Shown here: positions 7,900-34,607 of the stretch, one piece after another
Layout: the number at the start of each line of letters is the position of its first letter
Numbering within the stretch: the stretch's first letter is position 1
Assembly (NCBI RefSeq): GCF_058153355.1
Contig: NZ_CM177019.1
Length of the DNA: 64,000 nt
Direction: 5' to 3' (one strand)
Position numbers and translations under genes: made by a program
Notes under the pieces: model-generated
Told to the model about the DNA's origin: nothing
Database searches by the model: none
The model's input: only the letters and a program-made list of their open reading frames with translations

Positions 7900-15888
<7,989 letters not shown>

Positions 15889-16196
15889 GCTTACCTTCCC
15901 TGAACGAGCTAACATAAATGCGCCCTTTCTAGCACAGCGAAAAAATATAAATCCTGATAGCAATATGATTGAAAATTAATAACTTTTCGTTAAGCAGTTT
16001 TGGGTGTGAGTTGCAAGAGGGGAGACTACTGAATAACTCAAGTTTTATAATCGAGGGGAAAATGGTGATGGTGTCCATAGCAAAACGCCCTCAACCATAA
16101 AGATCGAGGGCGCTTAAGATGTCAAAAACCCGCTATCCGTTAAAAAGCAATGCTCAACTAAGGTCAGTGACATTGCGCTAAAAAGCGAATTTTTAG

Positions 16197-16216
16197 AATT
16201 TGGCTCCTCTGACTGG
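16197..16216. repeat. island boundary direct repeat (duplicate of tRNA-Asn 3' end, AATTTGGCTCCTCTGACTGG)
   Basis: Identical 20-mer recurs at 33537-33556, overlapping the 3' end of the minus-strand tRNA-Asn. Confidence 0.75.
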
Positions 16217-16367
16217 GATCGCCGTAGCCATTAACTGGCTGATTGGTAAGCTAAACCTAAAAGTTGGGGTTGTCAAGACCACCAGAATGACCACCTCTTT
16301 ACTTTGAAACTAACGACATATTTTACGCTCATCCCTCAGTCAATCGTAAGCTAATAAACAACACCAA

Positions 16368-16748
16368 CTACGGTGCTGGTATTATAGTCTCTGCTCCAAA
16401 CCAATTTCCAAGTGTTGTCAGTGCCGCAGGTGACAAAGCTTGGGTGAAAAGGATCGCAAGGCGCTTTTGGGGTCTGGAACAAGCGACGTAAAACAAATTT
16501 CGGTTTCGTTCAAATGAGTCTTGCTTATCGACTGGAATCGTTTGGGCTCCAGCGAATTCCAACATTTCTCCGAAGTTATACTGGTTCCACCCACGCCCAA
16601 CAACAACCAGGACATTCTCAAATTCAGCACCTTTCACACCATGTTTAGTTTCGAATGGAGAATATCCATCAAGATAACGGCGAAGTGATCTGACCTCCGA
16701 ATAGGGAATATTTTTCAGCTTTTCAAGTTCTTTTAATCTTCGGGGCAT
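16368..16748 (-). CDS. UvrD/PcrA-like SF1 helicase, C-terminal segment
   Basis: Carries helicase motif V/VI-like sequences (KGAEFENVLVV, YVACSRPQKRL); same reading frame as 16794-18122, separated by a single TAA. Confidence 0.6.
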   Translation of the reverse strand: MPRRLKELEKLKNIPYSEVRSLRRYLDGYSPFETKHGVKGAEFENVLVVVGRGWNQYNFGEMLEFAGAQTIPVDKQDSFERNRNLFYVACSRPQKRLAILFTQALSPAALTTLGNWFGAETIIPAP

Positions 16749-16793
16749 TTCAACATCAGCCGTTCTGTCAAAATGGAGTAACTCCTGCTCAAA

Positions 16794-18122
16794 TTATTCA
16801 ACCTTATCTGGAAGTCTTGGCTTCCGTTGAGCACGGATGAACTCAATTACGTCGCCAATTGTACCAGTTTCGCGGAGAGCAAGAAGTTGCGTCATTACAT
16901 TGTGCCAACTCACCTTATCTGAATGTCTACGCAACAGTGGTGTAATACCGCCAAGCGCATTAAACATCTCTCCATACTTACGAGCGGTAAAGGCATCACA
17001 GGCGGGTTCCAGTTTGTCTACAAAAAAGGCTATATGTTCATGTTCCTTTTTCGTGAAGGATTCATTGTATTTAAACGCTGCCACTATATTTGAATAGCCC
17101 TGCTGATTGGCTAAAAGTCGATGGGTCAACATGAGAATTTTGGTGTGATTGGGAGAAAAGTCCCAACCATCCTGCTCCAACGTTGTTTTAACTCGTTCCA
17201 GAGTAGCCTGGCCTTCACATAATGGTAAATCACCACTCCAGTGCACGCCTTTTTGACGAACTCCTTGCCAATTGTTTGTATGGAAAACGCGTACTAAACC
17301 TGTAGCTTCGGGATCTTTAACACACTGCGGTAGCTCAGGTCTCATACGATTAAGGGCATCAACAATTATCTTGTCCGAACGAAAATTGGCTTCTTTACCT
17401 ATTTCAACCACGTCCTGATGTTCCAGCTTTCCACATCCACCACCATAGATTTTTTGCCAATGGTCGCCGAAAAAACCAAATAAAGGTGCTCTAGCTTGTC
17501 CAAGAAAATGCCGTTTAATTGCCTCAATCCAGTTTTTATCAGTGTCCTGGTACTCATCGACCAGAATGATTGGAAAGCGTTCTGCAATCACTCTACGGAA
17601 TTTTTCGTGCTCCATGAGTGAGACAGTTAAAGAAAGAACATCGTCATGATGAAGAGTTATACGATGGTCGCGAATAGAGCGATGTCCAAGATTATACTCA
17701 ACACTACGATTCCCAAGGCTTCCACCAACTTCTTCGAGCTTTTCTGTCCATGTTGGCATTGTCTCAATCAGTTCTCTCAACGGTTTTTGAAAGCTGCTTA
17801 TTAACGACCAACAGAACGCATGATTGGTATCACAAAAAACGATGGGGCTTCGATCTGTTCGCGCGACGATTTCATCCTTCGCCACGTTAGTAAAGGTGAT
17901 GCAGGCAATTTGCTGGCTACGTTTTTCAAATAAATCCTTATTTCGCTCAATCAAGAATCGAAGTGCCTTAATAAGGGAATACGTTTTACCCGCACCAGCG
18001 CCAGCTTCCAGCCGGAAGCTTCGTCCTTCACTGAGGCAAGCATACATAGATTCCAAAGCTCGCTGGCTAGCAGCTTCGGCGGGCGAATGGATCTCAGACA
18101 TCAGCGCTGGCTCCTTCTTCAA
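16794..18122 (-). CDS. UvrD/PcrA-like SF1 helicase, N-terminal segment
   Basis: Walker A GAGAGKTY, motif II ILVDEYQDT, motif III-like FFGDHWQKIY; start overlaps the upstream OLD-family gene by 29 nt. Confidence 0.7.
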   Translation of the reverse strand: MKKEPALMSEIHSPAEAASQRALESMYACLSEGRSFRLEAGAGAGKTYSLIKALRFLIERNKDLFEKRSQQIACITFTNVAKDEIVARTDRSPIVFCDTNHAFCWSLISSFQKPLRELIETMPTWTEKLEEVGGSLGNRSVEYNLGHRSIRDHRITLHHDDVLSLTVSLMEHEKFRRVIAERFPIILVDEYQDTDKNWIEAIKRHFLGQARAPLFGFFGDHWQKIYGGGCGKLEHQDVVEIGKEANFRSDKIIVDALNRMRPELPQCVKDPEATGLVRVFHTNNWQGVRQKGVHWSGDLPLCEGQATLERVKTTLEQDGWDFSPNHTKILMLTHRLLANQQGYSNIVAAFKYNESFTKKEHEHIAFFVDKLEPACDAFTARKYGEMFNALGGITPLLRRHSDKVSWHNVMTQLLALRETGTIGDVIEFIRAQRKPRLPDKVE

Positions 18123-20166
18123 TACTAGTTGTGGCTTCTACAACTTGCGCCAATACTGGATCTTGTGTCATAAGCTCATTGCTGCCAGCTAACCAGCGGA
18201 TTCCATCGACTATGTATTTGGGGGCGTTCCATTCTGTCTCTGTAATCGCGTATTTCAATGCAAATTCTGATTTTTTCCACTCAGACGCTTTATCACGGGC
18301 TTCTATTTCCAGTTCCTGAGAATTTCTCCCTACCAGCCCGAATAAAGCCGAATTTGCAAGGATAAATGCATCTTCGAATGTGCGTCCGCAGGGGCCATCT
18401 GTCACTTCTGCACATTGATAGGCAATACGATTTCCATTACGAGCTTTATCATCGTCACTCCTGGCAATCAAACCAGCTAATGTGAAAGGGGTATCTTCAG
18501 AGAACCATGCTTTCAAACAAGCATTACTGGAATATGTACCAAGATGAACAGCACATGCCTGACCTCCTGCTCTTTGGACTGCGTCCAGATCTGTTATGAT
18601 CAGACTCTGAAGCTCAAGAAACGCTAATAACTCGAAGAACAAATGAGCGTAAGCACCGCCGACTTCCATCACCGTTGCGTACTGGCTCGACAGCTTCGGT
18701 CTCTCTGGTTCGGCTGATTCTAGTTTTTTGATGATGACGGGAAGCAATAATCGCTCGCTTAACCCCTCGACGAGAATCGCTTTATCTGCGAAAAACAGAT
18801 CACAACGTGTCAACGTCATGTATTGATGAAGGAATTTTTTATCTTCAATTAGAATATGATTCAGCCCTTTACGCAGATCTTTAATTTTGGTTTTTCGGAC
18901 ACCTTCCTGAGTCCCCTGTGCTGGAGCCCCCAGAAAATAGCGAATACTCTCGAAACCAGCCGCATTGGCAATGTGAGACGAGTGTGTAGACACGACAAAT
19001 TGTACAGGCCAGGGTCTCCTGTCCTCAGTGCCATCCACCAGTTGTTGTGCAATTTTGGCAAGTTGACGAATAAAAACCTCCTGCATTTGTGGATGCAGAT
19101 GGGCTTCTGGTTCTTCAATGAATATCAGGTGTACACCCGGCTCAGTAACTTCAGCACAAAATGCTTTATAGAAACCAGCTAATTGCAAGAGAATAAATAT
19201 CAGATTACGTGTACCAAGACCGTTATATGACTCCGGTAATGCGATTCCGCTATAACCTGAATAGCGAACTTTCGTGAAGTTTGATAGCAACTTGCTAACA
19301 TCGAGCAATGTTTCAGTATGTAACTCCTGTCCTCCCAATCCTGGGTATCCAAAAGTTTCTAGAGCCGGAATCAGACTGTTGAGCTGGTTTCCGAAGTTTG
19401 TGTCAATTTGAGTCTGAATGTCCTGAACTGCACCTTTCAATGCATCAGCAATTTGTTTATCAGCAGCTCCCGCAGATGCCGAAGAGGCTGTTGCGAAAAG
19501 ATTTTCAACCGTTTTAGCCAGTACATCGGATTCTCGGGACGTCACATCATCAAGTCCTCGCTGAGCGTTGATAAAGCCCGATTTGACCAGACCGCGCAAT
19601 GCACTAGGTGGTAACTCGCGACGATTATCAGGATCGTTGGGATCTTCAGCCCATATTTTCACACAGAAATTATTAGGGATACGTTCTCGCAATATACGGA
19701 GGAAAGCGAGGCGGTCTTCTCTAGAAAGTGGCATTTCAGTCTGACTTTCGAGAAATTGTGTCAGATGGCCATCTTTCAATTCGTATCGGACTACTACCTG
19801 CGCTTCAGAACACGCGGGATCCAAATCGATAACAAAGGGACTCAATGGACCTAATTGAGGTTGTGCAGGGTCGTACTGGAATTTCAGTCGAAGTTCAATG
19901 GCGGGAATAAGTTCTCGAACGAGATGATCTTCCATGCCTTCCTTAAGTGCTTCCAGAACATCACAAAAACGGTCGTAGCAGGAACTGGAAAAGTCTTCAA
20001 GTTGGAAAGTAGCACTACCATCTGCTAAGAATCTGCGTATTATTTCTGAGAGTGATGTTTTTCCGCTGTTGTTTCGTCCAACAATGACGGTCGTCTGTTC
20101 CTCCAATACAAGCTCTGCATCAGCTAAAAGACGGAAGTTTTTAATTTCGACCTGATGAATGTGCAT
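18094..20166 (-). CDS. OLD-family ATP-dependent endonuclease (ABC ATPase plus TOPRIM), GajA-like
   Basis: 690 aa; Walker A GRNNSGKTS, Walker B/D-loop LIFIEEPEAHLHP, H-loop STHSSH, TOPRIM-like AILVEGLSE and ITDLD. Confidence 0.7.
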   Translation of the reverse strand: MHIHQVEIKNFRLLADAELVLEEQTTVIVGRNNSGKTSLSEIIRRFLADGSATFQLEDFSSSCYDRFCDVLEALKEGMEDHLVRELIPAIELRLKFQYDPAQPQLGPLSPFVIDLDPACSEAQVVVRYELKDGHLTQFLESQTEMPLSREDRLAFLRILRERIPNNFCVKIWAEDPNDPDNRRELPPSALRGLVKSGFINAQRGLDDVTSRESDVLAKTVENLFATASSASAGAADKQIADALKGAVQDIQTQIDTNFGNQLNSLIPALETFGYPGLGGQELHTETLLDVSKLLSNFTKVRYSGYSGIALPESYNGLGTRNLIFILLQLAGFYKAFCAEVTEPGVHLIFIEEPEAHLHPQMQEVFIRQLAKIAQQLVDGTEDRRPWPVQFVVSTHSSHIANAAGFESIRYFLGAPAQGTQEGVRKTKIKDLRKGLNHILIEDKKFLHQYMTLTRCDLFFADKAILVEGLSERLLLPVIIKKLESAEPERPKLSSQYATVMEVGGAYAHLFFELLAFLELQSLIITDLDAVQRAGGQACAVHLGTYSSNACLKAWFSEDTPFTLAGLIARSDDDKARNGNRIAYQCAEVTDGPCGRTFEDAFILANSALFGLVGRNSQELEIEARDKASEWKKSEFALKYAITETEWNAPKYIVDGIRWLAGSNELMTQDPVLAQVVEATTSIEEGASADV

Positions 20167-20303
20167 ATGTCCCTCATGATCTATTTATAGTCTATCGATA
20201 AATCTGATGTTATTGCTCTACCTGTAATTTTCATTCTTACGATTGTTTTGCAATGCAAAATATACCTCAGGCCATATTTATTCCTGAGGTATGTTTTGGT
20301 ATC

Positions 20304-21824
20304 TCACTCGGTCAAAGAGGCCTCACGAACATCATCCGGTTGAGGTTGGCACTCTTTCCATCGTCGAATAAGCGTTGCTACACAGGGATTACCCGCCAGT
20401 TGATTCATTCTGACCCAGTCAACATCCACTAATCCAGCCAGAAGTTCAGGATTTAGTTCCCCTTGTAATGGGTGCCACTGGCGAATACTGGGCTGGCGCT
20501 GAATTTGAGGTTGAAGGGGAGCCAAACTCCCGACGATAACGTAATTTTGTTCTGGATCATGCCAGAGTCGTGTAATGCCAGGTATGTTTTTCAACCAGTT
20601 TCGAGGATCACCTAAAGGTAAATCAAAAACACGAGAGAGTAATTTATTCCATGACGCTATTAATGACGAACTGGCTTTCTTTGCCAATTTTTTCTCACCT
20701 GCCAGGAGTGCATTTTTTCTTTCTGGCCATTTGGAAAAAATATAACTTTTTAAAATATCGTAGGTAACATTAAGTTCATTATTGTAATAATACTCACGCA
20801 AAGCACAATTCCACAACTCGCACAGCAAGTCTAGTTCACGCATGAGTGTATTTTTATTGGTATCTGATAATTCACCTTCCTCATTAAGTTGCGCTATATA
20901 AAAAGACAGTATCTTTGTATCTGGTAAGAGCCAGTGGTTTAGTGAGAACTGCTGACTTTGAGTATCAAGAACAGTCATTAATGCATCTAAATTCTCAGGG
21001 ATCATATTAGGGGTGTCGTATTTCGGATCCTGAAGAAGAATGGATATTTCTTCCATTCTATGAATAATTATTGTCAATCTCTGAGCAAATCTGGTTAATT
21101 TATCTTCACTGCTGCCAAAACCTTGCGCTATTGATTCAGGCCGATAAGTATAAGGCCATTTTTTATTTAAGAGAGTAAGAAGAGCCTCGACAGAGGTATC
21201 AAACAGTTTCAGCCTTTCATCGCAGGCTTTAACTAAATCCGGGCAAGAAGGATTAAAAGGTAAAATTACTGGGCGGTCTTGTTCAGCGGTGAATAAATAT
21301 CCTTCGGTGATAACCAATAGGTCATGAGTCAGTAAGTCTTTCTGTTCTGTCAGGCTTGTACTGATTCTTGTTTCTTTGCAAAGTAAAAGATGCTTCAACG
21401 CAAGTTCTTTGTACGCAACTTCGGTATTACGCGCCAATGCATCAAGACAGGTCTTTTTCTCAAGATCTTGAATGGCATAGTCGTAATAGCAAGAATCTAT
21501 CGCAGGGATGAGTCGGGTAGTCCCATCGGGAGTATCCTGCTCAATCAATAAATTATCAACAACAGAATCACCACTAAGATCAAACGGATTAACGTTGATA
21601 TGCTGGCACGCAATTTTAGTTCTTAGATTCTGAGTTAACGGATAGCGGTCATCAATTATACCACGGATCTGATCTAACAAAACAAGTATGCATATAGAGC
21701 TGTCTTTTTCCAATTTTTCAAATGATGAGGGTTCTGAATCCGGTAATAATTCCAGCTGTACATCAGGATACTTTTTGTTCAACACCTTTTGTATCTGCGC
21801 ACTTCCCCGTGAAACCCGGGTCAT
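20304..21824 (-). CDS. hypothetical protein, no recognisable motif; 5' end lies in IS66-derived sequence
   Basis: Long ORF (track 20304-22004); only in-frame Met codons are inside the IS66 tnpC remnant, so the native N-terminus is probably lost. Confidence 0.4.
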
Positions 21825-22843
21825 CCAACCGGAAGAAGAATGCTGCCCGGCCTGTGGTGGCGGGCTCAGTCCTCTGGGATGTGATGTGTCAGAACAACTG
21901 GAGCTTATCAGCAGCGCCTTTAAGGTTATCGAAACACAACGTCCGAAACTGGCCTGTTGCCGGTGCGACCATATCGTGCAGGCTCCGGTGCCTTCAAAAC
22001 CCATTGCACGCAGTTATGCCGGAGCGGGGCTTCTGGCCCATGTTGTCGCTGGAAAATATGCAGACCATCTGCCGTTATACCGCCAGTCAGAAATATACCG
22101 TCGTCAGGGCGTGGAGCTGAGCCGTGCCACACTGGGGCGCTGGACAGGTGCTGTTGCTGAACTGCTGGAACCGCTGTATGACATCCTGCGCCAGTATGTG
22201 CTGATGCCCGGTAAAGTCCATGCCGATGATATCCCCGTTCCGGTCCAGGAGCCGGGCAGCGGTAAAACAAGGACTGCCCGGCTGTGGGTCTACGTTCGTG
22301 ATGACCGTAACGCCGGTTCGGAAATGCCTCCGGCGGTCTGGTTCGCGTACAGCCCGGACCGGAAAGGTATCCATCCACAGAATCATCTGGCCGGTTACAG
22401 CGGAGTGCTTCAGGCCGATGCTTACGGTGGTTACCGGGCGTTGTACGAATCCGGCAGAATAACGGAAGCCGCATGTATGGCTCATGCCCGGAGAAAAATC
22501 CACGATGTGCATGCAAGAGTGCCCACCGACATCACCACGGAAGCCCTGCAGCGTATCGGTGAACTGTATGCCATCGAGGCAGAGGTCCGGGGCTGTTCAG
22601 CAGAACAGCGTCTGGCGGCAAGAAAAGCCAGAGCCGCGCCACTGATGCAGTCACTGTATGACTGGATACAGCAACAGATGAAAACACTGTCGCGTCACTC
22701 GGACACGGCAAAAGCGTTCGCATACCTGCTGAAACAGTGGGATGCACTGAACGTGTACTGCAGTAATGGCTGGGTGGAAATCGACAACAACATCGCAGAG
22801 AACGCCTTACGGGGAGTGGCCGTAGGCCGGAAAAACTGGCTCT

Positions 22844-24667
22844 GTGTGTCACGAAGGAGTACTTATGGCAACAATGTGAAAATTGCAGCATAAGTTATCC
22901 ATGCTCTGAGGTGGGTGGAGGTGGGCCCTCCGGTCAGGGTTTACAGGAGCACTGACCAAACGACCCGGTGCTGCTTCATTCTAAGGAATGAGGTGGTGAG
23001 CGACTCGGGAAAAGGCAGAGATCTACTGTCACGTGGGGTTCGGGAAGCTGAACGAAAGTAAACTGTCCGATGAAGCATCGAAATCTTAGATGATGTCAAA
23101 ATGGGGCCGTACAGCCGTCCCCTGATAAGCGCAGAAGACACCTGCTTACTGACTGCGCGGCATCCGGTGTGAAGGCAGCAGGATCCCGGGCCAGACCATC
23201 TCAGGGAACGTGAGAACCTGTTTCCGGCACGTATCGGGAAACAGGGGCGGACCCATTCGTAGTAGTGATGAAAGATCTGTAATGGGTCTGGAGCGAAGGG
23301 ATGGGGATCACATTCATTGCAGAAGACACAACCCAAAAGGGGATGACGTAACTGATGCAACGAAAATCATTTGAAATACCAAAAGCACTGGTCTGGGCAT
23401 CATATCTGGATGTGCGTCGCAACAAGGGAGCCCCCGGATGCGACGGGCAGACTTTGAAAATGTTCGACCAGCAACGTGATGGCAATCTATACAAGATCTG
23501 GAACCGGCTATGTTCGGGAACATGGTTTCCGCCACCAGTGCTGGAAAAACGGATCCCGAAGTCGAATGGCAAGGAACGCATTCTGGGGATCCCAACAGTA
23601 TCCGATCGAATTGCTCAGGGAGCGATAAAACTTTTCATGGAAGAAAAGCTTGACCCGATTTTCCATGCTGATTCATATGGTTACCGACCAGGCAAATCAG
23701 CTCATGACGCTCTGAAACAATGTGCCATCCGGTGCTGGCGTTATAGCTGGATACTGGAAGTGGACATCAGTGCGTTTTTCGACCATGTGAGACATGATCT
23801 GGTGCTCAAAGCTCTGGAACACCACGGGATGCCTAAATGGGTCATCCTGTACTGTCGACGCTGGATGGAAGCGCCAATGCAGAGTTGTGAAAATGGAGAA
23901 TTAATAACCCGAACACGAGGCACTCCGCAGGGCGGGGTCATTAGTCCACTACTTGCTAACTTGTTCCTTCACTATGCATTTGATTTGTGGATGGAAAGAG
24001 AATATCGGGGGGTACCGTTTGAGAGGTACGCTGACGATATTGTAGTACATTGTTCACGAATGAGTGATGCAACAAGGCTGAAGAACAGGTTATCGGAGCG
24101 CTTCTCGGAAGTCGGGCTGGTCCTGAATGCAGGGAAAACGAATATCGCCTACATTGACACGTTTAAAAGGAGAAACGTCGCAACGAGTTTCACCTTTCTC
24201 GGATATGACTTCAAAGTGCGTACGCTGAAGAATTTCAAAGGCGAACTGTACCGAAAATGCATGCCGGGTGCGTCAAATGCAGCAATGCGCAAAATAACAG
24301 AAACAATCAAGAAGTGGCGTATACATCGCTCAACAGCTGAGAGTTTGCTGGATTTTGCGAGGCGCTACAATGCGATAGTGAGAGGCTGGATCGAGTACTA
24401 CGGAAAGTTCTGGTCCAGAAATTTCAACTATCGACTGTGGAGTGCAATGCAGTCACGTCTGCTCAAGTGGATGCAGTCTAAATACAGACTTTCGAACCGG
24501 AAGGCTCAGCGAAAGCTGACGCTGGTAAGGAAGGAGTATCCGAAGCTATTTGTTCACTGGTATTTACTACGTGCATCAAATGAGTGATCAAGAGCCGTAT
24601 GACGCGAGAGTGTCACGTACGGTTCCGTGAGCAGCCGGGGAGTGAAATTCTCTCCGGCTGACTCGAC
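22844..24667 (+). mobile_element. group II intron (~1.8 kb) with intron-encoded reverse transcriptase
   Basis: 5' GTGTG start; domain V-like GAGCCGTATGACGCGAGAGTGTCACGTACGGTTC near 3' end; joining the flanks restores the TnpC frame (KNWL-FAGSDSGG). Confidence 0.7.
23355..24587 (+). CDS. group II intron reverse transcriptase/maturase
   Basis: 410 aa with RT motifs including YADD and a C-terminal maturase-like region. Confidence 0.8.
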   Translation: MQRKSFEIPKALVWASYLDVRRNKGAPGCDGQTLKMFDQQRDGNLYKIWNRLCSGTWFPPPVLEKRIPKSNGKERILGIPTVSDRIAQGAIKLFMEEKLDPIFHADSYGYRPGKSAHDALKQCAIRCWRYSWILEVDISAFFDHVRHDLVLKALEHHGMPKWVILYCRRWMEAPMQSCENGELITRTRGTPQGGVISPLLANLFLHYAFDLWMEREYRGVPFERYADDIVVHCSRMSDATRLKNRLSERFSEVGLVLNAGKTNIAYIDTFKRRNVATSFTFLGYDFKVRTLKNFKGELYRKCMPGASNAAMRKITETIKKWRIHRSTAESLLDFARRYNAIVRGWIEYYGKFWSRNFNYRLWSAMQSRLLKWMQSKYRLSNRKAQRKLTLVRKEYPKLFVHWYLLRASNE

Positions 24668-24852
24668 TCGCAGGTTCCGACAGCGGTGGCGAACATGCGG
24701 CGGTGTTGTACTCGCTGATCGGCACATGCCGTCTGAACAATGTGGGGCCAGAAAAATGGCTGCGTTACGTCATTGAGCATATCCAGGACTGGCCGGCAAA
24801 CCGGGTACGCGATCTGTTGCCCTGGAAAGTTGATCTGAGCTCTCAGTAAATA

Positions 24853-26796: not shown

Positions 26797-26798
26797 GA

Positions 26799-27572
26799 TC
26801 AGCAGGTGTTGCTTTTCGTCACGCCAGGCAATGGCGGGCAGAATGCGCCTGACCCAGACGTGGCGACGGAAATCTGCAACTCGTTGCCTGGCTTGGCTGC
26901 CTGCGTGAGTTCATGTTCTTCGCCATATTTTTCTTTTTGTTTCTTGGCTTCTTTTTCCAGCAATTTGATATTCTGAATCAGAGTTATCTCCACCGCTGCG
27001 CATGATTTGATTAATGACTCTTTCTCACTGGCGATGGCCGTCTGAAAACGCGTCGGATATCCTTTCAGCGATTTGTTAATATGCAGTATGTTTTTGCAAT
27101 TTCTACGCAATTTGTCGGCGATATCCTGAATGGCAAACAAATTTCTGTCTTCCAGGATATTGATGGAGTCAAATGGATCGGGAAGTGAGTCTGCGGAAAT
27201 ATTATTCTCATGAGGCAAGGGGGTGGCCTCGATGGCAGAAACGATCTGTTCATCTTGTGCATAGAGCACGCTGACGGTGAATGGTTCCCCGTTACTGTCT
27301 TTATGCGCTGCCGTTTTCTCATAAATGTCGTGCAAAATATTCCAGCGATGGGTAACCAGAATGGCTTGAGAGCCTGATTTTTTTATCGTCTCCAGCGCCG
27401 GGAGAGCGTTATCGGCATAGCCAGAGCGGTAGAGTGAGCTGGTTTTTCCGCTACCCGTAGGCCCCTGAAGCTGACAAAATCCTGCGATACGACGGGATGT
27501 TTTGGATTTTTTTGCCTGAGAAAGGGTGTATTCAATAACGGCATTGTAGGAACGTATTAAAGGGGCACTCAC
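26799..27572 (-). CDS. P-loop NTPase N-terminal segment (Walker A GPTGSGKTS)
   Basis: 257-aa ORF with Walker A near residue 40; low-complexity C-terminal tail suggests a frameshift into the next ORF. Confidence 0.45.
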   Translation of the reverse strand: MSAPLIRSYNAVIEYTLSQAKKSKTSRRIAGFCQLQGPTGSGKTSSLYRSGYADNALPALETIKKSGSQAILVTHRWNILHDIYEKTAAHKDSNGEPFTVSVLYAQDEQIVSAIEATPLPHENNISADSLPDPFDSINILEDRNLFAIQDIADKLRRNCKNILHINKSLKGYPTRFQTAIASEKESLIKSCAAVEITLIQNIKLLEKEAKKQKEKYGEEHELTQAAKPGNELQISVATSGSGAFCPPLPGVTKSNTC

Positions 27573-27885
27573 ATTTCACCTCATCCGTGTCAGGTTATCG
27601 AAGAGTAGAATTTCAGCAAATTCATGTTACACCGAACGGGTATCATTTCAATGTTTAATAATAATTTCCCCTTATAAAACAACGCTTATAATACATTCGC
27701 AGGTCAGATGATTTATCGGTGTGTTATTTGTTTGAATTTGGTGTTGTGGTTTTCTTTTTTTAACAATCTTCGATCTTCCTTCCACGACTTCCCCTTGCCG
27801 TTTTCAACCGAAAGCGGTATCTTTCACTTGCACCTGCAAAATCAGGTGCCGGGATTGGAACCCCGAAATGTAACCATACTGGCGA

Positions 27886-27910
27886 CACGTGACGCGTCTG
27901 CGTCTTTTTT
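27886..27910 (+). terminator. hairpin plus T-run (GACGCGTCTGCGTC-TTTTTTT)
   Basis: Short GC stem followed by seven T on the plus strand. Confidence 0.35.
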
Positions 27911-28075
27911 TATGTCGCGCGCTTAGCTACACCAAAATTATGGTGGGCTGGGCGGGGGCACCGTAAGGTGCGCCGGTTCCAGTATGGCCGGTAGTTCCAA
28001 CCTCGTTCAGTCCACCACCCATGAGATTGGAACCTCTGGTGGTGGTTTTCAAACCACATACTGGAGGCTGCCTTT

Positions 28076-28543
28076 ATGGCTACGATCCCCACTCAGACAC
28101 ACCCGTTACTTGCTGTTCCCTTCAATGCTGCCACAGATTTTACCGTACTGGCAGACCACTGTGAAAACTTCGCCGAAACCCTGATCGAAAGCGACGACCC
28201 GGTGCTGCGGCTGGCGCTTTGCGGGCGGCTTGCCGCCTGTCTGACTCTGCTGCAACCCACGCTGAACGAACCCATCCCGTCCCATCTGACTGACAGCCTG
28301 ACCGTTGATGCTCTACCTGCCGATATGCCCCGATTTGTCCCCGACGCTGAATTACTTTGTGACTACTCACTGACGCTGGCGCAACTTCTTATCGGGCAGG
28401 GGATGCTGCCAAAAATGGAGCAGACGATAACTGGCTTATTATGTGAACTGGTCTGGTATTTTGCCGCTGAAATGAAAGCCCCGCGTTGGCTGCGTACTGC
28501 CGGTGGCGTGAAGTTTATCGATGGTGTGGAGGCCAAAGCATGA
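28076..28543 (+). CDS. hypothetical protein (155 aa), translationally coupled to Ner-like gene
   Basis: ORF with no recognised motif; stop overlaps the next start. Confidence 0.4.
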   Translation: MATIPTQTHPLLAVPFNAATDFTVLADHCENFAETLIESDDPVLRLALCGRLAACLTLLQPTLNEPIPSHLTDSLTVDALPADMPRFVPDAELLCDYSLTLAQLLIGQGMLPKMEQTITGLLCELVWYFAAEMKAPRWLRTAGGVKFIDGVEAKA

Positions 28544-28746
28544 TGCAGTCTGACTGGCATCCTGCCGACATTATCGCCGGGCTGAAAAAACGTGGCACTT
28601 CGCTGTCAGCGCTTTCGCGTCAGGCTGGGCTGGCGTCCTCCACGCTGGCTAATGCGCTTACCCGCCGCTGGCCCAAAGGTGAAAGATTGATTGCCGAAGC
28701 GTTAGATGTTGCGCCTGAGAACATCTGGCCTTCGCGCTATCGCTGA
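28540..28746 (+). CDS. Ner/Nlp-family HTH DNA-binding protein
   Basis: MMQSDWHPADIIAGLKKRGTSLSALSRQAGLASSTLANAL...WPSRY resembles Nlp/Ner; start placed at internal Met of ORF 28486-28746. Confidence 0.6.
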   Translation: MMQSDWHPADIIAGLKKRGTSLSALSRQAGLASSTLANALTRRWPKGERLIAEALDVAPENIWPSRYR

Positions 28747-28892
28747 TGTCCTTCCGGCGCAGCCACGATACGGAAGCTGCGCCGCATTTCGTTTATCTGA
28801 TTTGTCATAATCCTTTGAACCGCAAAAACAGTTTTCTATTATCGGCCTTCTTACCACGAACTAAGCTCCCGCCTGTACAAAATGCTTCATGA

Positions 28893-28920
28893 CCTGAAAG
28901 AAGCGCCTGATGTATCAGGA
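28893..28920 (+). repeat. imperfect direct repeat copy 1 (CCTGAAAGAAGCGCCTG...TATCAGGA) upstream of pemI
   Basis: About 30 bp shared with a second copy at 29862-29889. Confidence 0.45.
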
Positions 28921-29093
28921 TGGTCGCCGTTTTACCGGCAATGCCGCCTTTGAAAACTGCCGGATCTGTCCTTCGATGGATTAAGGCTTTCTTCATACTT
29001 TATTACGCTAAGGAAATCACAATGAATCTGATGAATAATTGTGCATCGCCTGCCGTAGATGTTATATTAAAATATAATATTCGGAGGTGCTCT

Positions 29094-29351
29094 ATGTATA
29101 CAACTCGCCTGAAAAAGGTCGGCGGATCCATCATGCTGGCGGTTCCCCCCGCCGTGCTGAAAACGCTGGAGCTGTCGACGGACAGCGAAGTGGGTATGAC
29201 CATTGATAATGGCTGCCTGATTATTGAACCCCAGAAACGGCCCCGTTATTCGCTTGAGGAGCTGTTGGCGCAGTGCGATCCGCACGCAGAAATGAGCGAA
29301 GAGGATCGGGAATGGATTGATGCGCCTGCGGTGGGCAAGGAGATCCTGTAA
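29094..29351 (+). CDS. pemI: PemI/MazE-family antitoxin
   Basis: MYTTRLKKVGGSIMLAVPPAVLK...YSLEELLAQCDP closely resembles plasmid R100 PemI; start at internal Met of ORF 28920-29351. Confidence 0.8.
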   Translation: MYTTRLKKVGGSIMLAVPPAVLKTLELSTDSEVGMTIDNGCLIIEPQKRPRYSLEELLAQCDPHAEMSEEDREWIDAPAVGKEIL

Positions 29352-29684
29352 ATGGACAGAGGGGAAATCTGGCTGGTTTCACTGGATCCGATTGCAGGTC
29401 ACGAGCAAAGCGGAAAACGTCCGGTGCTTATCGTATCGAAGGCATCGTTTAACAAGCTGACCCGGCTACCCGTTGTTGTTCCCGTTACCAGCGGTGGAAA
29501 CTTCGCCCGTGCAGCCGGTTTTACCGTCTCACTGGACGGTGCGGGAACAAAAACAACGGGCGTTATTCGCTGCGACCAGCCCAGAACCATTGATATGGGA
29601 GCCCGGAGCGGAAAGCGACTGGAACGTATACCCGATGCTGTCGTGAATGAAGTGCTGGCCCGACTGGAGGCCATTCTGAGCTGA
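29352..29684 (+). CDS. pemK: PemK/MazF-family toxin
   Basis: MDRGEIWLVSLDPIAGHEQSGKRPVLIVS...LPVVVPVTSGGNFARAAGF closely resembles PemK. Confidence 0.85.
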   Translation: MDRGEIWLVSLDPIAGHEQSGKRPVLIVSKASFNKLTRLPVVVPVTSGGNFARAAGFTVSLDGAGTKTTGVIRCDQPRTIDMGARSGKRLERIPDAVVNEVLARLEAILS

Positions 29685-29861
29685 TGCTTTTTATGTAAAC
29701 TGAATGATGGCGCTGTCATATACAGCGCCATCATTTTTTATAACGACAAGTGATTAAAAAATCCTTTTGCAGGTAAAAACAGTTTTTCCTTTCTCCGCCA
29801 GCGGTACTGGCATAGTCTCCCCCTTGCCCTATGCTGTCGTTGACAGCGCCACGCTTCACAA

Positions 29862-29889
29862 CCTGAAAGAAGCGCCTGTTATCAGGAGG
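29862..29889 (+). repeat. imperfect direct repeat copy 2, downstream of pemK
   Basis: Matches 28893-28920 with a few mismatches; partial similarity extends ~40 bp further. Confidence 0.45.
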
Positions 29890-30119
29890 TTGAGCCCTTT
29901 ACCGGTGCAGACCTTTGCAAACACCGGGTCGCAGAACATCGCGACGGAGGCCAGAGTTTTAACACGATACGTCCTTTTACTGCGCCAGCCTGCTGGTCTG
30001 AATCTGCCCCGCGCCGGAATTTTCCCGGTCAGCTTATATTTGCTGACACCCTCAGCACCTTTTACCTCACGGGCTGCGGCATGCATTTGCCGCAAGGCAT
30101 TTGCTGACGCGTGCCCGTA

Positions 30120-30250
30120 AAACTGCACCAGACGGTAAATTTTCAGACGCTGCACCAGACCCGTGCGTCACTTTAACCGCGCAGAGCGGGAAAGTGACGC
30201 ACGCAATCCCTTTCGACCTGCACCAGAAAACTCAACTGCGCCAGCTCACG
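30120..30250 (-). repeat. array of CTGCACCAG/CTGCGCCAG motifs upstream of the recombinase gene
   Basis: At least four copies near 30123, 30149, 30220 and 30238, in opposite orientation to the array at 31618-31881. Confidence 0.45.
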
Positions 30251-30535
30251 GCTGGAGTCTGACACCGCCTTTTCAGGCCATTTACCTATAAGGAGAACAT
30301 GAATCGATACCGAGGCGGATCCGGACGATCCGGGGGATAACCCGCGCAAGCGGGCGGCTGCTCAGAGAGCACAACCGAAGCCCCACCACACCTCAACGGC
30401 TGCCGCCCCGGCGCTCAGGTATCGTTCGCAGCCCCGACAAAAAAACAGGGGCTATCGGCCTGTGCGCCGGGGAAAGCTGTATCAGTGTTGGTTTTTTGGG
30501 GGATGAGTTTGCGGCAATCATGAAAAGGGGAATGT

Positions 30536-31423
30536 ATGGGGATACTGGAGCAGGAAATGACGCGACTGGCGCAGCAGGCGGGTGGCAGCTACAAAACTGT
30601 GGATGACCGCATCAGGCTGGCGCAGCGGTTTTGTGAGCGTCTGGTTCTGGCGCAGAACGTACAAATCCGCCGGGTGGAGCAGCTTAAGGCGCGGCATATT
30701 GAAGGCTATGTTCGTGAACGGCTGGCGCAGGGCATCACAAAGCGTTCCCTGCAAAATGAGATGGCGGCGGTGCGCTGCATTCTGAAACAGGCCGGGCGTG
30801 ACAGGCTGGCGCAGAGTGAGCGGCTGAATAACCGCTCGCTGGGATTGTCCGGAGCATCCCGTAACGGGACGAAGCTGGCTATTACACTGGAGCACTATCG
30901 TGATGTGCTGGAGACCGCCCGCGTAAAAGATCCGGGGCTGGCGGCAGCGCTGGAGCTCTCAAGGTTGATGGGATTACGTTCGCAGGAGGCGGTGCAGAGT
31001 GTACAGTCGCTGAAAACGTGGATACAGGCGCTGGAGCGTGGTGAGTCCCGGTTAACCGTGGTGTTCGGCACCAAAGGCGGACGGCCCCGCGAGACGATTA
31101 TTCTTGATGCTGGCGTAGTTAAAAAAGCGCTGGATAATGCGCTGGTGGTGGCTGAGGATCGTCACGGCAGGCTGATAGATAAGCCCGATCTGAGAAGCGC
31201 GATGAAATACTGGCACAGCCAGGCGTCGGGTCTTGGTTTAACTGGCGCATATTCCCCGCACTCGTTGCGCTATGCCTGGGCGCAGGATGCTATTCGTCAT
31301 TATCTGGCGCAGGGATTTTGTGAGAAGGAAGCGCTGGCGATGACGGCGATGGATTTGGGTCACGGCGACGGGCGCGGGCGGTATGTGGCGCAGGTTTACG
31401 GGCGAAAGGGGGATGCTGATTGA
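30536..31423 (+). CDS. small tyrosine recombinase/integrase-family protein
   Basis: 295 aa; C-terminal HSLRYAWAQ box and candidate nucleophile in GRGRYVAQVYG; LAQ-rich N-terminal domain. Confidence 0.5.
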   Translation: MGILEQEMTRLAQQAGGSYKTVDDRIRLAQRFCERLVLAQNVQIRRVEQLKARHIEGYVRERLAQGITKRSLQNEMAAVRCILKQAGRDRLAQSERLNNRSLGLSGASRNGTKLAITLEHYRDVLETARVKDPGLAAALELSRLMGLRSQEAVQSVQSLKTWIQALERGESRLTVVFGTKGGRPRETIILDAGVVKKALDNALVVAEDRHGRLIDKPDLRSAMKYWHSQASGLGLTGAYSPHSLRYAWAQDAIRHYLAQGFCEKEALAMTAMDLGHGDGRGRYVAQVYGRKGDAD

Positions 31424-31446
31424 TAGCTTCAGACTTGCAATATGAT

Positions 31447-32005
31447 GTTATTCATCGTTTTCCGTACAAAATTATTTGCCTCAAATAATTTTGGGTGATT
31501 TCCTATTAATCCCGGGTTATTCATCGTTATTCACCGAAAAAATTTCTACGTAGAAATTTTTTGTTCGATTTCCTCTCAATAAAAATGCTTCTGAACGGTA
31601 TGGCCTATTAACAGGCCTCTGGTGCAGTATTACGGTATTTTACTGATGATTGCGCCAGCAAAAGGAAAAGGCCAAATAATGGTAAAGGGCGACTAAGGGT
31701 AACAGCGCCAGACCGGAAAGGGCCAAAAGGCTAAAAGGCCTTAACACTGGCGCAGTTTGATGTTTATCCAATAATATCTGGCGCAGTCCTGACATAGACA
31801 GGTGACAGCGGACTGGTGCAGTAAATGGTGACATTGAACTGGTGCGGATACGATGTATTGGGAAATCAGTTTCTGGTGCAGATTATCTGGCAGCTATCGT
31901 CTGGAGATTATTCACTGTGAATAATTTTCGTTATTTGCCTATTGATTCATAATATATTGATAGGTTTTCGTACAAAATTATTCTACGTCGAATAATTTTG
32001 TACGC
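31447..32005. promoter_or_regulatory. cluster of perfect palindromes (candidate operators or recombination sites)
   Basis: CAAAATTATTTG-CCT-CAAATAATTTTG (~31466-31492); 24-bp AAAAATTTCTACGTAGAAATTTTT (~31539-31565); ATTATTCAC-T-GTGAATAAT (~31907-31925); GTACAAAATTATTC...GAATAATTTTGTAC (~31969-32002). Confidence 0.5.
31618..31881 (+). repeat. array of CTGGYGCAG direct repeats at ~26-35 bp spacing
   Basis: Copies near 31618, 31747, 31778, 31813, 31839 and 31873. Confidence 0.5.
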
Positions 32006-32055
32006 TTTCCGATTAATAACCCAAAAGTTGAAGATAAATCCTTTCAATGTAAAAA

Positions 32056-32088
32056 GCAGATCCGGATTCAATCGGGATCTGCTTTTTC
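32056..32088. terminator. bidirectional hairpin terminator between recombinase region and integrase 3' end
   Basis: AAAAAGCAGATCCGGATTCAATCGGGATCTGCTTTTT: 10-bp stem flanked by A-run and T-run. Confidence 0.55.
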
Positions 32089-32116
32089 ATTCTTAACAAA
32101 TCATATTGCTACTGGC

Positions 32117-33379
32117 TCAGGCCGCCTTATGCCGTCGCGCATAAATATACGGCGCAACGTATCCCTCGCGGCTCACGTCCAGATAATCCGACCACCACTG
32201 CATCATGGCTGTACGGGCGTCAAGATGTTCAGCCCGGTGGATATACGCCGCCCGAACGCTGTTGCGCTCCTGATGACTTATCTGCCGCTCCACCGCATCC
32301 CGTGACCAGAGCTCAGATTCCACTAATGCGCTACAGGCCATTGCCCGGAAGCCATGCCCGCAAACGTCAGTTTTAGTATCGTAACCTATCAGACGCAGCG
32401 CCCGGTTGATGGTGTTTTCACTCATCGGTTTATACGGGTTATGGTCGCCGGGGAACACCAGTTCCAGATGGCCGGAAATTTCGTGTATCTGCTTCAGAAT
32501 GGCAATAGCCTGTCGGGAAAGTGGCACAATATGTGGGGTGCGCATTTTCGCGCCGCGACCAGAGAAACGGACTTTCTCAATCGCTTCCCTTGTGGCGGGG
32601 ATGATCCAGATTTTGTTTCTGAAATCTATCTCACCCCAGCGGGCAAAGCGCAGCTCGCTGGAACGGATAAACAGGTGGAGAGTCAACACCACCGCCAGCC
32701 TCGTAAGCTGTCGTCCCTGCCGATAGTCGCCAATGCGCTCAAACAATTCGGGCAACCGCTCCAGCGGCAGAGCGGGATAGTGATTCTTAACCGGCGGCGC
32801 GGTGACGCCTTCCAGATGCTGCGCCGGGTTGTTTTCGGTCAGTCCCTGCTGAACGGCGTAACGCATGATGTTGCAGAGTTGCTGCCGGGTACGGGACGCG
32901 ACTTCCAGAAAACCTTTATCCTCAATAACCCGCAGTAACGCAGTGAAATGCTGCGTTTTCAGCGTGGTAACGGGCAGATGGCCAATAGCCGGAAATATAT
33001 GGTTATTCATGCTGGCGAGAATGCGCTCTGCATAATCAGGCGACCACTTTTTGTTGGTTTTGTGCCATGCAAGCGCTACAGCTTTAAAACACTTTTCCGG
33101 TGAAGTGGCGGCTTTTTCATCCATGCGTTGTTGGGCGGGGTTGATATTCTGCGCCAGTAGCTTGCGGATAGCATCGCGCTGTTGCCGGGCTTCAGCGAGA
33201 GAAATCAGCGGATATGCGCCCAGACTGACGCGGGACTCTTTACCACCGAAGCGATACTTGAGATACCAGATACGTGAACCGCCGGGATTGACCAGCAAAT
33301 ACAGACCGTGTGAATCAGACAGTTTGACGGGTTTGGAAGAGGGTTTTAAGTTACGGATTTTTGAATCGTTTAAAGACAT
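32117..33379 (-). CDS. int: P4-type tyrosine integrase
   Basis: ORF 32117-33481; start placed at MSLNDSKIRNLKPSSKPVKLSDSHGLYLLVNPGGSRIWYLKY, a P4-integrase-like N-terminus; adjacent to tRNA-Asn. Confidence 0.8.
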   Translation of the reverse strand: MSLNDSKIRNLKPSSKPVKLSDSHGLYLLVNPGGSRIWYLKYRFGGKESRVSLGAYPLISLAEARQQRDAIRKLLAQNINPAQQRMDEKAATSPEKCFKAVALAWHKTNKKWSPDYAERILASMNNHIFPAIGHLPVTTLKTQHFTALLRVIEDKGFLEVASRTRQQLCNIMRYAVQQGLTENNPAQHLEGVTAPPVKNHYPALPLERLPELFERIGDYRQGRQLTRLAVVLTLHLFIRSSELRFARWGEIDFRNKIWIIPATREAIEKVRFSGRGAKMRTPHIVPLSRQAIAILKQIHEISGHLELVFPGDHNPYKPMSENTINRALRLIGYDTKTDVCGHGFRAMACSALVESELWSRDAVERQISHQERNSVRAAYIHRAEHLDARTAMMQWWSDYLDVSREGYVAPYIYARRHKAA

Positions 33380-33540
33380 TTGGGGGTCACTCCAGAATCG
33401 AACCAACCTGACCCCAAATCTGACCACCAAATTAACCGGATGCGGAGGGAAAACTGAATACGCATCTGGAAAGATTTTCACGCTAACTTATTGAATCAAT
33501 ATCAAATAAAGACTAATAAGGTAGCGTAAGAATCGAAATT

Positions 33541-33616
33541 TGGCTCCTCTGACTGGACTCGAACCAGTGACATACGGATTAACAGTCCGCCGTTCTACCG
33601 ACTGAACTACAGAGGA
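33541..33616 (-). tRNA. asnT: tRNA-Asn (GUU), island integration target
   Basis: Exact reverse complement of the 76-nt tRNA-Asn at 1688-1763; symbol by synteny with yeeJ and mtfA. Confidence 0.9.
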
Positions 33617-33623
33617 ATCGTGT

Positions 33624-33652
33624 GAACGAGGCGCATATTACTTAGCGGTACC
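33624..33652 (-). promoter_or_regulatory. sigma70-like promoter for asnT (TTGACA-17 bp-TAATAT)
   Basis: Minus strand reads TTGACAGACAAGGTACCGCTAAGTAATATGCGCCTC just upstream of the tRNA. Confidence 0.5.
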
Positions 33653-33716
33653 TTGTCTGTCAACACCAAATTTCATAAGTTATTTCAACTGGTTAATTAA
33701 TCTGCAAACTTGTTAA

Positions 33717-34514
33717 TTAATGAACATTCGTCGCCGAAAACGAGTCTGTATCATTAGCGTGATGCAGTCTCTGCAAAGGATCTTGTTGATAAAATTGGCA
33801 GAAACGTTGCCACAATGAAGGGAAACGAGGAGCAAAAAGTTCTGGGGCGCTAAAGAAATATTCAGAAAGTACAGCAAAACACTCAGCAGGATCACTGGCA
33901 GCATAAGCATCAATGCTCGCCGCATTCTCGCCAACCAATTCGATTTCTTCCTGAATATTGTTCATTGCAGCATGAAGATCGTGTTCCCAGCCAGCAACCT
34001 CACGCAACGGAATAAAGGGAACTCCGCTGGCGCGATCGCCGTTACGGGTGTCCAGCTTATGAGCGACTTCATGAATAATCAGGTTAAAACCAGAAGCATC
34101 AAAAGAATCTTGTATATCCAACCAGTTCAAAACGATAGGCCCTTGCTGCCAGCTCTGACCTGACTGAACAATACGTTGGTTATGCACCAGACCGATATCG
34201 TCTTCCCATTCGTCATCGACCACAAATGGCGCAGGATAAATTAAGACTTCATGAAAACCATCCAGCCATTCCAGTCCTAACTCCAGAACGGGCAGGCAAA
34301 ATAGAAGTGCTATCCGGCAGCTTCTTAATGAATCCAGCTCAAAGCCCTGTAAGGGAACAAGCCGTTTTTGCTGTAAAAAACGTTCAGCAAGAGTGACTAG
34401 TTTCCTTTGTTCCTGTTCTGTCAGGCACGTTAAAAGGGGAATCGATAGTGCTTCCTGCCAGGGAAGGGCAGTTTGATGTGCTGATTCTTGTACTTTCCAG
34501 GGCCACTTAATCAT
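33717..34514 (-). CDS. mtfA: Mlc titration factor A (zinc-dependent peptidase fold)
   Basis: ORF 33717-34553; start placed at [28 protein letters not shown] motif IIHEVAHKL. Confidence 0.85.
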
Positions 34515-34607
34515 CGTTTTGCTCGCAAACTCGTCACTTGAACAAAATTGCACGGACAGGGACTGTTAAAATGCCAAATTTCCTGGCATCATGGCAACCA
34601 TCTGAAC

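Follow-up and report, generated by a model that had tools for sequence, protein, structure and literature searches.

A modular asnT island with a conserved backbone, an exchangeable slot, and decayed Gabija and putative DdmDE-type cargo

The 64,000-nucleotide (nt) stretch of DNA analysed here (the window; NCBI RefSeq assembly GCF_058153355.1, contig NZ_CM177019.1) holds, at positions 16197-33616, a genomic island that abuts the tRNA-Asn gene asnT. We conclude with considerable confidence that this is a modular integrative island, inserted at asnT by a P4-type integrase, whose cargo of a Gabija system and a DdmDE-type system has been inactivated. Comparison with sister islands shows that it is built of a 5.7-kb backbone, a distal arm of ~80 bp and an 11.5-kb exchangeable cargo slot. 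The window island is probably excision-competent yet immunologically spent, and may be held in place by the PemIK toxin-antitoxin pair of its backbone. It is a real element of an ordinary kind at a known hotspot. In the survey of E. coli defence islands, the yeeJ-mtfA tRNA-Asn site is hotspot #16, occupied in 393 of 897 genomes, the other three asn sites being hotspots #13-15 and serU #17 (PMC10121019 supplement); with the site thus on record, the concept cannot count as new. Taken alone, therefore, the island changes little, as this is textbook behaviour at a catalogued hotspot. Its interest lies mainly in an overlooked DdmDE-like clade, in a defined backbone and slot, and in a C4-type switch within a non-phage island.

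Integration at asnT

Three tRNA genes were called in the window by ARAGORN: an intact asnT (tRNA-Asn(GTT), 33541-33616, minus strand; Rfam tRNA 72.6 bits), with mtfA alongside, asnW (tRNA-Asn(GTT), 1688-1763, plus strand) and serU (tRNA-Ser(CGA), 34608-34697, plus strand). The island is bounded by two exact copies of the 20-bp sequence AATTTGGCTCCTCTGACTGG, the attachment (att) core, in direct orientation on the plus strand, one proximal to the integrase (33537-33556) and one at the distal end beside yeeJ (16197-16216). A third exact copy lies at the 3' end of asnW (1748-1767, minus strand). The chance expectation for this 20-mer is 0.00, with zero matches in 100 dinucleotide-preserving shuffles. 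Within the integrase-proximal copy, positions 33541-33556 are the 3' 16 nt of asnT and 33537-33540 are 4 nt of its downstream flank. ARAGORN made no tRNA call at 16197, which indicates that the distal copy is a partial duplicate of the tRNA gene.

An empty-site construct of 2000 bp was made by joining positions 15197-16196 to 33537-34536, that is, by removing 16197-33536, and was compared with 5426 complete RefSeq E. coli genomes, the set that underlies all counts of complete E. coli genomes given here. The construct was colinear from end to end, as a single piece, in 2581 of these genomes. Strain 167 gave the best match (99.6%), and the annotations beneath the empty-site match are a yeeJ/Ig-like adhesin gene, tRNA-Asn and mtfA. 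This uninterrupted yeeJ-asnT-mtfA junction in relatives indicates a precise insertion, which amounts to 17,340 bp with one repeat copy counted. A first-pass annotation of the window, made from the sequence alone, had proposed an asnT-integrated island of ~17.4 kb with these features, and our results bear it out: its coordinates were right and its 20-bp direct repeat is exact, the composition of that repeat (16 nt of the 3' end of tRNA-Asn plus 4 flanking nt) can be read directly from the sequence, a P4-type integrase adjoins the tRNA gene, and the contiguous mtfA-asnT-yeeJ site that it suggested seeking in other genomes exists. The contrary pattern, in which the same content would lie between yeeJ and asnT everywhere and have no flanking repeats, was looked for and was not seen.

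G+C content is uneven inside the island (0.38-0.59), compared with about 0.50 in yeeJ. The same left junction was found in 0 of the 5426 complete genomes, and the island with its flanks was covered at 80% or more in 0 of 5426. The exact integrase protein occurs in the same context in a few draft assemblies and sequencing runs, and two such draft assemblies also show split ddmD-like fragments (257 aa plus 638/647 aa; aa, amino acids). The presence of the decayed configuration in independent drafts argues that it is not an assembly artefact and that it marks a real, small lineage.

The integrase gene (32117-33379, minus strand) lies 161 bp from asnT and encodes a tyrosine integrase of 420 aa from a conserved start, full length by Pfam, NCBIfam (PRK09692) and alignment. 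Its product has the P4-type set of Pfam domains (Arm-DNA-bind_3, 2.2e-24; Phage_int_M, 2.3e-25; Phage_integrase, 6.9e-16), is 93-96% identical to full-length integrases found at asnV, asnW and asnT elsewhere and carries no disabling change. The expected catalytic residues R239 (in IRSSEL), H342-x-x-R345 and Y379 fall in invariant columns of an alignment of four integrases. Judged by its sequence, the integration machinery of the window island is intact. In the mechanism that we propose, this integrase would recombine the 3' end of asnT, with a crossover within the 20-bp core that would regenerate the tRNA gene and leave the core as a direct repeat, and the arms on either side (~80 bp distal and ~160 bp integrase-proximal) would carry accessory binding sites. 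As the core is common to the four asn tRNA genes of E. coli, members of the family sit at asnT, asnV or asnW, and asnU holds a smaller island whose integrase and Integrase_1 genes are similar. The sequence TGACCACC was considered as a motif common to both att arms and was rejected: the window holds five copies where 1.84 would be expected, and a count of five or more came up in 6 of 100 shuffles, which is not significant.

Backbone, distal arm and exchangeable slot

Alignment and blastn delimit a conserved backbone (27757-33536) and, at the other end of the island, a conserved arm (16217-16295), presumably the binding arm for the recombinase, with the cargo slot (16296-27756) between them. The backbone segment common to sister islands (27757/27794-33540) shows 89-96% nucleotide identity and the distal segment (16194-16295) shows 95%. 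In other strains, backbone and arm flank unrelated cargo at asnV, asnW and asnT, and each site carries a short partial-tRNA repeat rather than a duplicated full tRNA gene. At asnW, strain CFIAFB20190157 carries Avs3. At asnT, F2_81 carries genes for a 946-aa protein and an LA2681 HEPN protein, and SC418 carries Gabija with a pair of large genes, at about 77-82% nucleotide identity. The same large gene pair, annotated as hypothetical, accompanies Gabija at asnV in LF82 and A32; in EC28, also at asnV, both large genes are present and Gabija is truncated by an IS3-family insertion sequence (IS) element. Between backbone and arm, the defence systems in the slot differ from strain to strain. With the anatomy of this asn-tRNA family defined, the slot offers a place to look for further defence systems.

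The family is rare, the whole backbone being covered at 80% or more in 29 of the 5426 genomes. Closest to the window island is the one carried by LF82, NRG857c and some 20 further strains (97% identity, with 80% of the query covered); this LF82-type island is located at asnV, beside nac and cbl. An asnT island of O145:H28 with type VI secretion genes has only the repeat and the ~80-bp distal arm in common with the window island. IS elements are common in the sister copies. In F2_81, over positions 9006-24487 of the extracted locus, genes from the asnW side (yeeN, tRNA-Asn and a partial yeeO) are joined directly to the asnT island, which indicates a rearrangement between asn tRNA loci through identical tRNA copies or IS elements. 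Strain A32 has, besides its LF82-type island at asnV, a second and smaller island at asnU, at 23757-29873 of the extracted locus, with genes for a P4-type integrase, an Integrase_1-domain protein, three helix-turn-helix (HTH) proteins and a DUF4747 protein.

Gabija and a DdmDE-like pair in the decayed slot

The first-pass annotation had described the cargo as defence-like and toxin-antitoxin genes, in place of the siderophore or polyketide loci often found at asn sites. That the cargo is of defence type, and not a yersiniabactin or pks locus, stands, with the refinement that in the window island it has decayed; the toxin-antitoxin genes (PemIK) proved to belong to the backbone and not to the variable cargo. 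Lesions were mapped against the intact LF82 copy.

The Gabija genes are adjacent and overlap, as expected of this system, of which the window locus is a family member by descent. The gene gajA (18094-20166, minus strand), for an OLD-family ATPase/nuclease, is full length at 690 aa (PADLOC GajA PDLC00063, 3.4e-290); residues 1-672 of its product align with positions 1-672 of the 679-position profile, and it differs from that of LF82 by 9 substitutions. Its partner gajB (16368-18101, minus strand), for the UvrD-type helicase of Gabija, is a pseudogene (PADLOC GajB PDLC00113, 2.6e-203). Relative to intact LF82, a single change of AAA to TAA at 16794-16796 stops codon 436 of 577, so that the product ends at residue 435, and the match to PDLC00113 extends only to profile position 435 of 579. 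As this premature stop leaves no full GajB, the window Gabija system is probably inactive.

The rest of the cargo derives from the pair of large genes whose intact versions in LF82 encode proteins of 1300 and 818 aa. As single sequences, neither has a match in Pfam, PADLOC v2, NCBIfam or PDB, so that annotation with the first three misses the pair altogether. Homologues are sparse, occurring in Enterobacterales, Vibrio, Alteromonas, Rheinheimera, Pasteurellaceae, cyanobacteria and Spirochaeta; every one of them bears the annotation "hypothetical". The order of a large gene followed by a smaller one is kept across four phyla, as in Vibrio (1317 and 813 aa), a cyanobacterium (1319 and 822 aa) and Spirochaeta (1320 and 820 aa), in contexts that are rich in mobile-element and defence genes and in which Gabija is not adjacent. 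On the cyanobacterial contig, directly downstream of the pair, there is a 138-aa fragment cut by a transposase (14626-15042 of the extracted locus), with AAA_15, AAA_21 and SMC_N matches and a GajA-like N-terminus, which may echo the linkage of Gabija and the pair in E. coli.

We consider it very likely, from conserved motifs and a predicted structure, that this pair is a distant, unannotated anti-plasmid system of the DdmDE type. An alignment of 32 large proteins (the LF82 orthologue and 31 homologues) shows as invariant GxTGxGK (K43), DEFDYQ (D289, E290), SAT (562-564), QQxGRxER (914-922) and D1173...D1184-A-K1186, which is the motif set of a superfamily 2 (SF2) helicase with a PD-(D/E)xK nuclease after it. 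The family profile matches one PDB family, DdmD (9ix4_A, E = 9.4e-8), in four colinear segments: Walker B, SAT, motif VI and the nuclease motif. For the small protein, an AlphaFold2 model built on 43 sequences has a mean predicted local distance difference test score (pLDDT) of 85.6 and a predicted template modelling score (pTM) of 0.81. The six best Foldseek matches of this model in PDB are DdmE chains of L. casei and V. cholerae (E 2e-19 to 7e-12, TM-score 0.5-0.6), followed by Argonaute and PIWI proteins. The LF82-type pair therefore has two of the features by which a DdmDE-type system can be recognized: its large protein begins with an SF2 helicase and ends with a PD-(D/E)xK nuclease, and the gene directly downstream encodes a partner whose predicted model resembles the fold of a long-C prokaryotic Argonaute, a type defined by MID/PIWI and the lack of a canonical PAZ. 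In V. cholerae DdmE, the 5'-phosphate of the guide is bound by Y363/Q376 and E401/K405 (bioRxiv 10.1101/2024.05.10.593530), and the small protein has invariant residues at the same spacings (Y373-x12-Q386 and E452-x3-K456); it is suggestive that these may correspond to the phosphate pocket of DdmE. The two-gene order, helicase-nuclease then Argonaute-like protein, is also that of DdmDE in V. cholerae and L. casei, with the difference that the proteins of the pair are about 100 aa larger (1300 and 818 aa compared with about 1190 and 700 aa). Some observations weaken the DdmE assignment. It depends on a predicted structure with 10-12% identity to DdmE, a profile of the 818-aa family does not match DdmE in PDB, and three distant relatives of 685-729 aa, retrieved from a search of 1.84 billion proteins, have no PDB match either.

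The same concept, a helicase/nuclease with an Argonaute-like partner on E. coli genomic islands, has been described for ApsAB of E. coli ST38 (Zongo et al. 2024). An ApsAB system would be recognized by homology to ApsA and ApsB and by the ApsB motif Y-x3-K...QG...K. We rejected identity of the pair with ApsAB, as hhalign gave E-values of 0.27 and 0.17, which are not significant, against the N-terminal fragments (~384 aa) of CNR81D10 ApsA and ApsB. ApsA, with 1569 aa and motifs spelled GFGKS and DELH, is unlike the large protein of the pair, and the Walker A and Walker B strings of the latter are not in the homologue tables of the ApsAB paper (PMC11096173). A literature lookup by RefSeq protein accessions found nothing.

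Of the 5426 complete E. coli genomes, 25 have the pair, without exception as a chromosomal locus, and in all 25 it is annotated as "hypothetical"; carriers include the Crohn's-associated strains LF82 and NRG857c. In a search of 1.84 billion representative proteins, the family of the small protein comprised 64 clusters at E <= 1e-3. A few plasmids of Salmonella and Citrobacter carry the pair too: homologues of the DdmE-like protein, at about 70% amino acid identity, come from Salmonella megaplasmids and from a Citrobacter freundii plasmid of 82 kb (NZ_CP022118.1, NZ_CP022016.1, NZ_CP056259.1, NZ_CP056241.1). A putative anti-plasmid system can thus itself be plasmid-borne.

In the window, only remnants of both genes are left. 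The DdmD-like helicase/nuclease gene is represented by a 5' remnant (24879-27572, minus strand) covering the N-terminal 896 of 1300 codons, which is frameshifted by a 5-bp insertion (26889-26893) and has lost helicase motif VI and the nuclease domain. Of the gene for the DdmE-like, Argonaute-fold protein there is a 3' remnant (20304-21803, minus strand; blastn against LF82) that encodes the C-terminal 499 of 818 aa. Between them, 2.2 kb of LF82-equivalent DNA is missing, with which the large gene has lost its 404 C-terminal codons and the small gene its first ~319. In place of this DNA stands 21804-24878 (plus strand), a remnant of an IS66-family element with a partial tnpC (NCBIfam transpos_IS66, 1.7e-123). 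The right inverted repeat of this element, ...CCGCTTAC, ends at 24878 and abuts island DNA. A group II intron lies within tnpC (22895-24670, plus strand, with approximate ends), as seen from Rfam matches to group-II-D1D4-2 (91.9 bits, 22917-23033) and to Intron_gpII (domains D5/D6; 57.1 bits, 24590-24667) and from an open reading frame (ORF) for a reverse transcriptase/maturase between them (23355-24587; TIGR04416, 6.4e-118). A 3,080-bp piece of this tnpC/intron DNA (window 21800-24879) is also present in E. coli 536 (97.3%), at 3001-6080 of the extracted locus, and in about 20 other genomes, where further IS fragments border it. Evidently this composite moves as one unit. In the simplest history, IS66 would have inserted into the large gene, and a deletion next to it would then have taken out the left half of the IS and 2.2 kb of island DNA.

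With such lesions, the window copy of the DdmDE-like operon can be read as dead. The defence function of the island in this genome has probably been lost, because full GajB is absent, the DdmD-like protein has neither motif VI nor nuclease, and the DdmE-like protein is without its N-terminal 40%. Inactivation of ApsAB has been selected experimentally when a costly plasmid must be kept (PMC11096173). By analogy, plasmid retention is a plausible, if speculative, reason for cargo decay in the window lineage, which may be a natural example of a trade-off between defence and plasmid carriage.

Backbone functions, mobility and rival explanations

At its cargo-proximal end the backbone carries a phage-type C4 antisense-RNA switch (whole module 27817-28066, plus strand). 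This consists of an isrK-like leader (27830-27910, plus strand; Rfam 71.1 bits, gathering threshold 50) and a C4 RNA (27936-28022, plus strand; Rfam 83.2 bits, gathering threshold 45), whose stem-loops expose CCAGTATGG and GTTCCAA. Computed target boxes, which are perfect complements of 7-9 nt, lie at 27855-27861 (b1), 27874-27882 (a1), 28027-28033 (b2) and 28057-28065 (a2), and the a2 box overlaps the GGAGG Shine-Dalgarno sequence before the ATG at 28076. Rfam scores above gathering, together with two sets of a and b boxes of which the second lies over the ribosome-binding site, identify the module as a C4 switch. In the immI locus of phage P1, a1/b1 boxes are followed by C4 and then by a2/b2 boxes over the ribosome-binding site. 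The island switch has the layout of P1/P7 immI and of IsrK-type antirepressor control in Gifsy-1, with a leader holding a1/b1, a C4-type RNA with a'/b' loops, and a2/b2. It differs from these in lying on a non-phage island and in its targets, which are a 155-aa helical protein and a Ner-like HTH protein instead of the Icd/Ant or Rha antirepressors. The leader is about 74% identical to leaders of antirepressor/Rha genes of Shiga toxin (Stx) and other lambdoid phages, and the similarity reaches into the first codons of the phage Rha/Ant genes but not into the rest of the coding sequence. The C4 leader of LF82-type islands is interrupted by an ISEc1 element between the equivalents of window positions 27853 and 27864; in LF82, at 14770-16058 of the extracted locus, it parts the 5' portion of the leader from the C4 RNA, and the LF82 integrase gene is a pseudogene. 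The LF82 copy has kept its cargo and may have lost both regulation and mobility, the reverse of what is seen in the window. Upstream-extended calls of the 155-aa ORF or of phage Rha ORFs are annotated as 'Ash family protein' (PF10554; window 27936-28075 and homologues). The Ash Pfam match seemingly falls in the extension, which overlaps the C4 RNA gene, so that many proteins annotated as 'Ash' may be no more than translations of C4 RNA sequence.

The ORF under the switch (28076-28543, plus strand) encodes a 155-aa protein predicted to form a four-helix bundle. It is widespread in Enterobacterales islands and has no Pfam, PHROG or NCBIfam match, and its AlphaFold2 model has no informative match in PDB (E >= 0.05). 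It is followed by a gene (28540-28746, plus strand) for a 68-aa HTH regulator resembling Ner/SfsB(Nlp) (NCBIfam SfsB, 4.4e-30; phrog_769; Pfam HTH_35); the matches to SfsB/Ner led us to reject an AlpA-type excisionase for this protein. Further along the backbone, pemI and pemK (29094-29684, plus strand) are adjacent genes for an antitoxin of the MazE fold and a toxin of the PemK/MazF fold (MazE/MazF, ChpS/ChpB-like), that is, a type II toxin-antitoxin pair. PemK matches NCBIfam ChpB (9e-34) at 116 bits, under the equivalog cut-off of 129; PemI matches ChpS/MazE in NCBIfam, the locus also matches phrog_1936, and Pfam PemK_toxin and MazE_antitoxin are found on identical products. Both proteins are identical in sequence to those of LF82. 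Next comes a second tyrosine-recombinase-like gene, of 295 aa (30536-31423, plus strand; Pfam Phage_int_SAM_2 8.2e-36 and Integrase_1 3.2e-60), with an EFASI RNA motif directly upstream (30299-30428, plus strand; Rfam RF02957, 119.2 bits, gathering threshold 51.2). A 140-aa 'hypothetical' annotated in LF82 is frameshifted in the window and is probably not a gene. We propose that PemIK would penalize loss of the island and that the C4 RNA would hold the orf155/ner operon translationally off until relieved by a signal.

The window island resembles the integrase-only defence islands of Hochhauser et al. (2023, PLoS Genet; PMC10121019), which are described as of unknown mobility and have the same make-up: integrase genes and defence systems, Gabija among them, and nothing else that would serve mobility. 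The C4 switch, Ner-like HTH gene, PemIK and EFASI/Integrase_1 genes of the backbone, the distal arm and the DdmDE-like cargo are not described there, and the cargo here is pseudogenized. Several results weigh against a mobile, integrase-driven element. Among the island ORFs there is no recognized excisionase or recombination directionality factor (RDF), and the gap at 31424-32116 holds no convincing small ORF. No transfer, replication, packaging or relaxase gene was found among them with PADLOC, NCBIfam or PHROGs, which leaves horizontal movement unexplained. A pattern for the attP junction of the excised island was matched neither in IMG/VR nor among 100,044 species genomes. The pseudogenization of the LF82 integrase shows that the family can become fixed, and placement at different asn sites could come partly from homologous recombination between identical tRNA copies, as in the asnT/asnW rearrangement of F2_81. 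The missing attP junction, the LF82 pseudogene and the F2_81 rearrangement also favour an immobile relic, which would have come to asnT, asnV and asnW mainly by homologous recombination or transduction of flanking DNA between identical asn tRNA copies and not by continuing integrase activity; the heavy decay of the cargo, the IS elements in sister copies and the rarity of the backbone favour this reading as well. We rate it as unlikely, because the window integrase is full length, close to its counterparts at other sites and free of disabling change, neither att arm is damaged and both are conserved from one site to the next, and each site has the short partial-tRNA repeat that site-specific integration predicts.

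Two other kinds of mobile element are less likely still. A helper-dependent phage satellite (P4-like, or resembling the phage-inducible chromosomal islands, PICI), induced by a helper, packaged in its capsids and using the C4 switch as a sensor, would account for the P4-type integrase and for the phage-like C4/isrK leader with its Rha/Ant codons; a lambdoid prophage with a C4 module of its own lies 1 kb away at serU, and Hochhauser et al. suggested that integrase-only islands may be uncharacterized satellites (PMC10121019). We nevertheless regard a satellite as improbable. PHROGs, NCBIfam and Pfam revealed no P4 core gene and no PICI primase/rep, capsid or small terminase subunit gene (psu, delta, sid, epsilon, the alpha primase-helicase and alpA all went undetected with PHROGs on the backbone ORFs and NCBIfam, Pfam and PADLOC on the others), the attP junction is not found among IMG/VR viral contigs, a match to the whole backbone is absent from 50,697 phage records, and the C4 RNA of the island (CCAGTATGG/GTTCCAA) does not have the same loops as that of the prophage nearby (GTAGCAA). 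Lowest of all we place an Enterobacteriaceae-associated ROD21-like (EARL) island or another integrative mobilizable element that rides on conjugative machinery. The size of 17 kb is near that of the smallest EARL members (19 kb), but such islands carry genes for a MobA/MobL relaxase, a TraD homologue and type IV pilin, an RDF at the distal end and repeats of 24-37 bp (Pina-Iturbe et al. 2018, PMC6035254), and the ORF set of the smaller window island contains no relaxase, TraD, pilin or recognized RDF gene and no H-NS or TIR gene, with a repeat of 20 bp. A bolder proposal, to which we give as little credence as to the relic, is that the backbone represents a new class of phage-responsive hitch-hiker, in which the C4 switch would couple the operon of the 155-aa and Ner-like genes, and thus excision or transfer, to phage or prophage activity, and that, separately, the 1300/818-aa pair, as the usual cargo of this backbone, forms a functionally distinct clade of immunity by Argonaute and helicase-nuclease that present annotation pipelines overlook. 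If true, a phage-responsive backbone would explain how 'integrase-only' defence islands move. Overall, we favour a modular integrative island inserted by its own integrase.

The lambdoid prophage at serU lies within 34608-64000 of the window, with its integrase gene at 34750-35775 (minus strand) followed by exonuclease, Rha/antirepressor, terminase and portal genes; with the asnT island, two adjacent tRNA genes thus each hold a mobile element. It has an isrK (61.5 bits) and a C4 RNA (75.7 bits) of its own at 39600-39788 (minus strand), upstream of a Rha-type ORF. Recognition loop and target are GTAGCAA/TTGCTAC in the prophage, compared with GTTCCAA/TTGGAAC in the island. Cross-talk between the two C4 RNAs was rejected as unlikely since these loops differ, and the two switches look hetero-specific, like those of P1 and P7.

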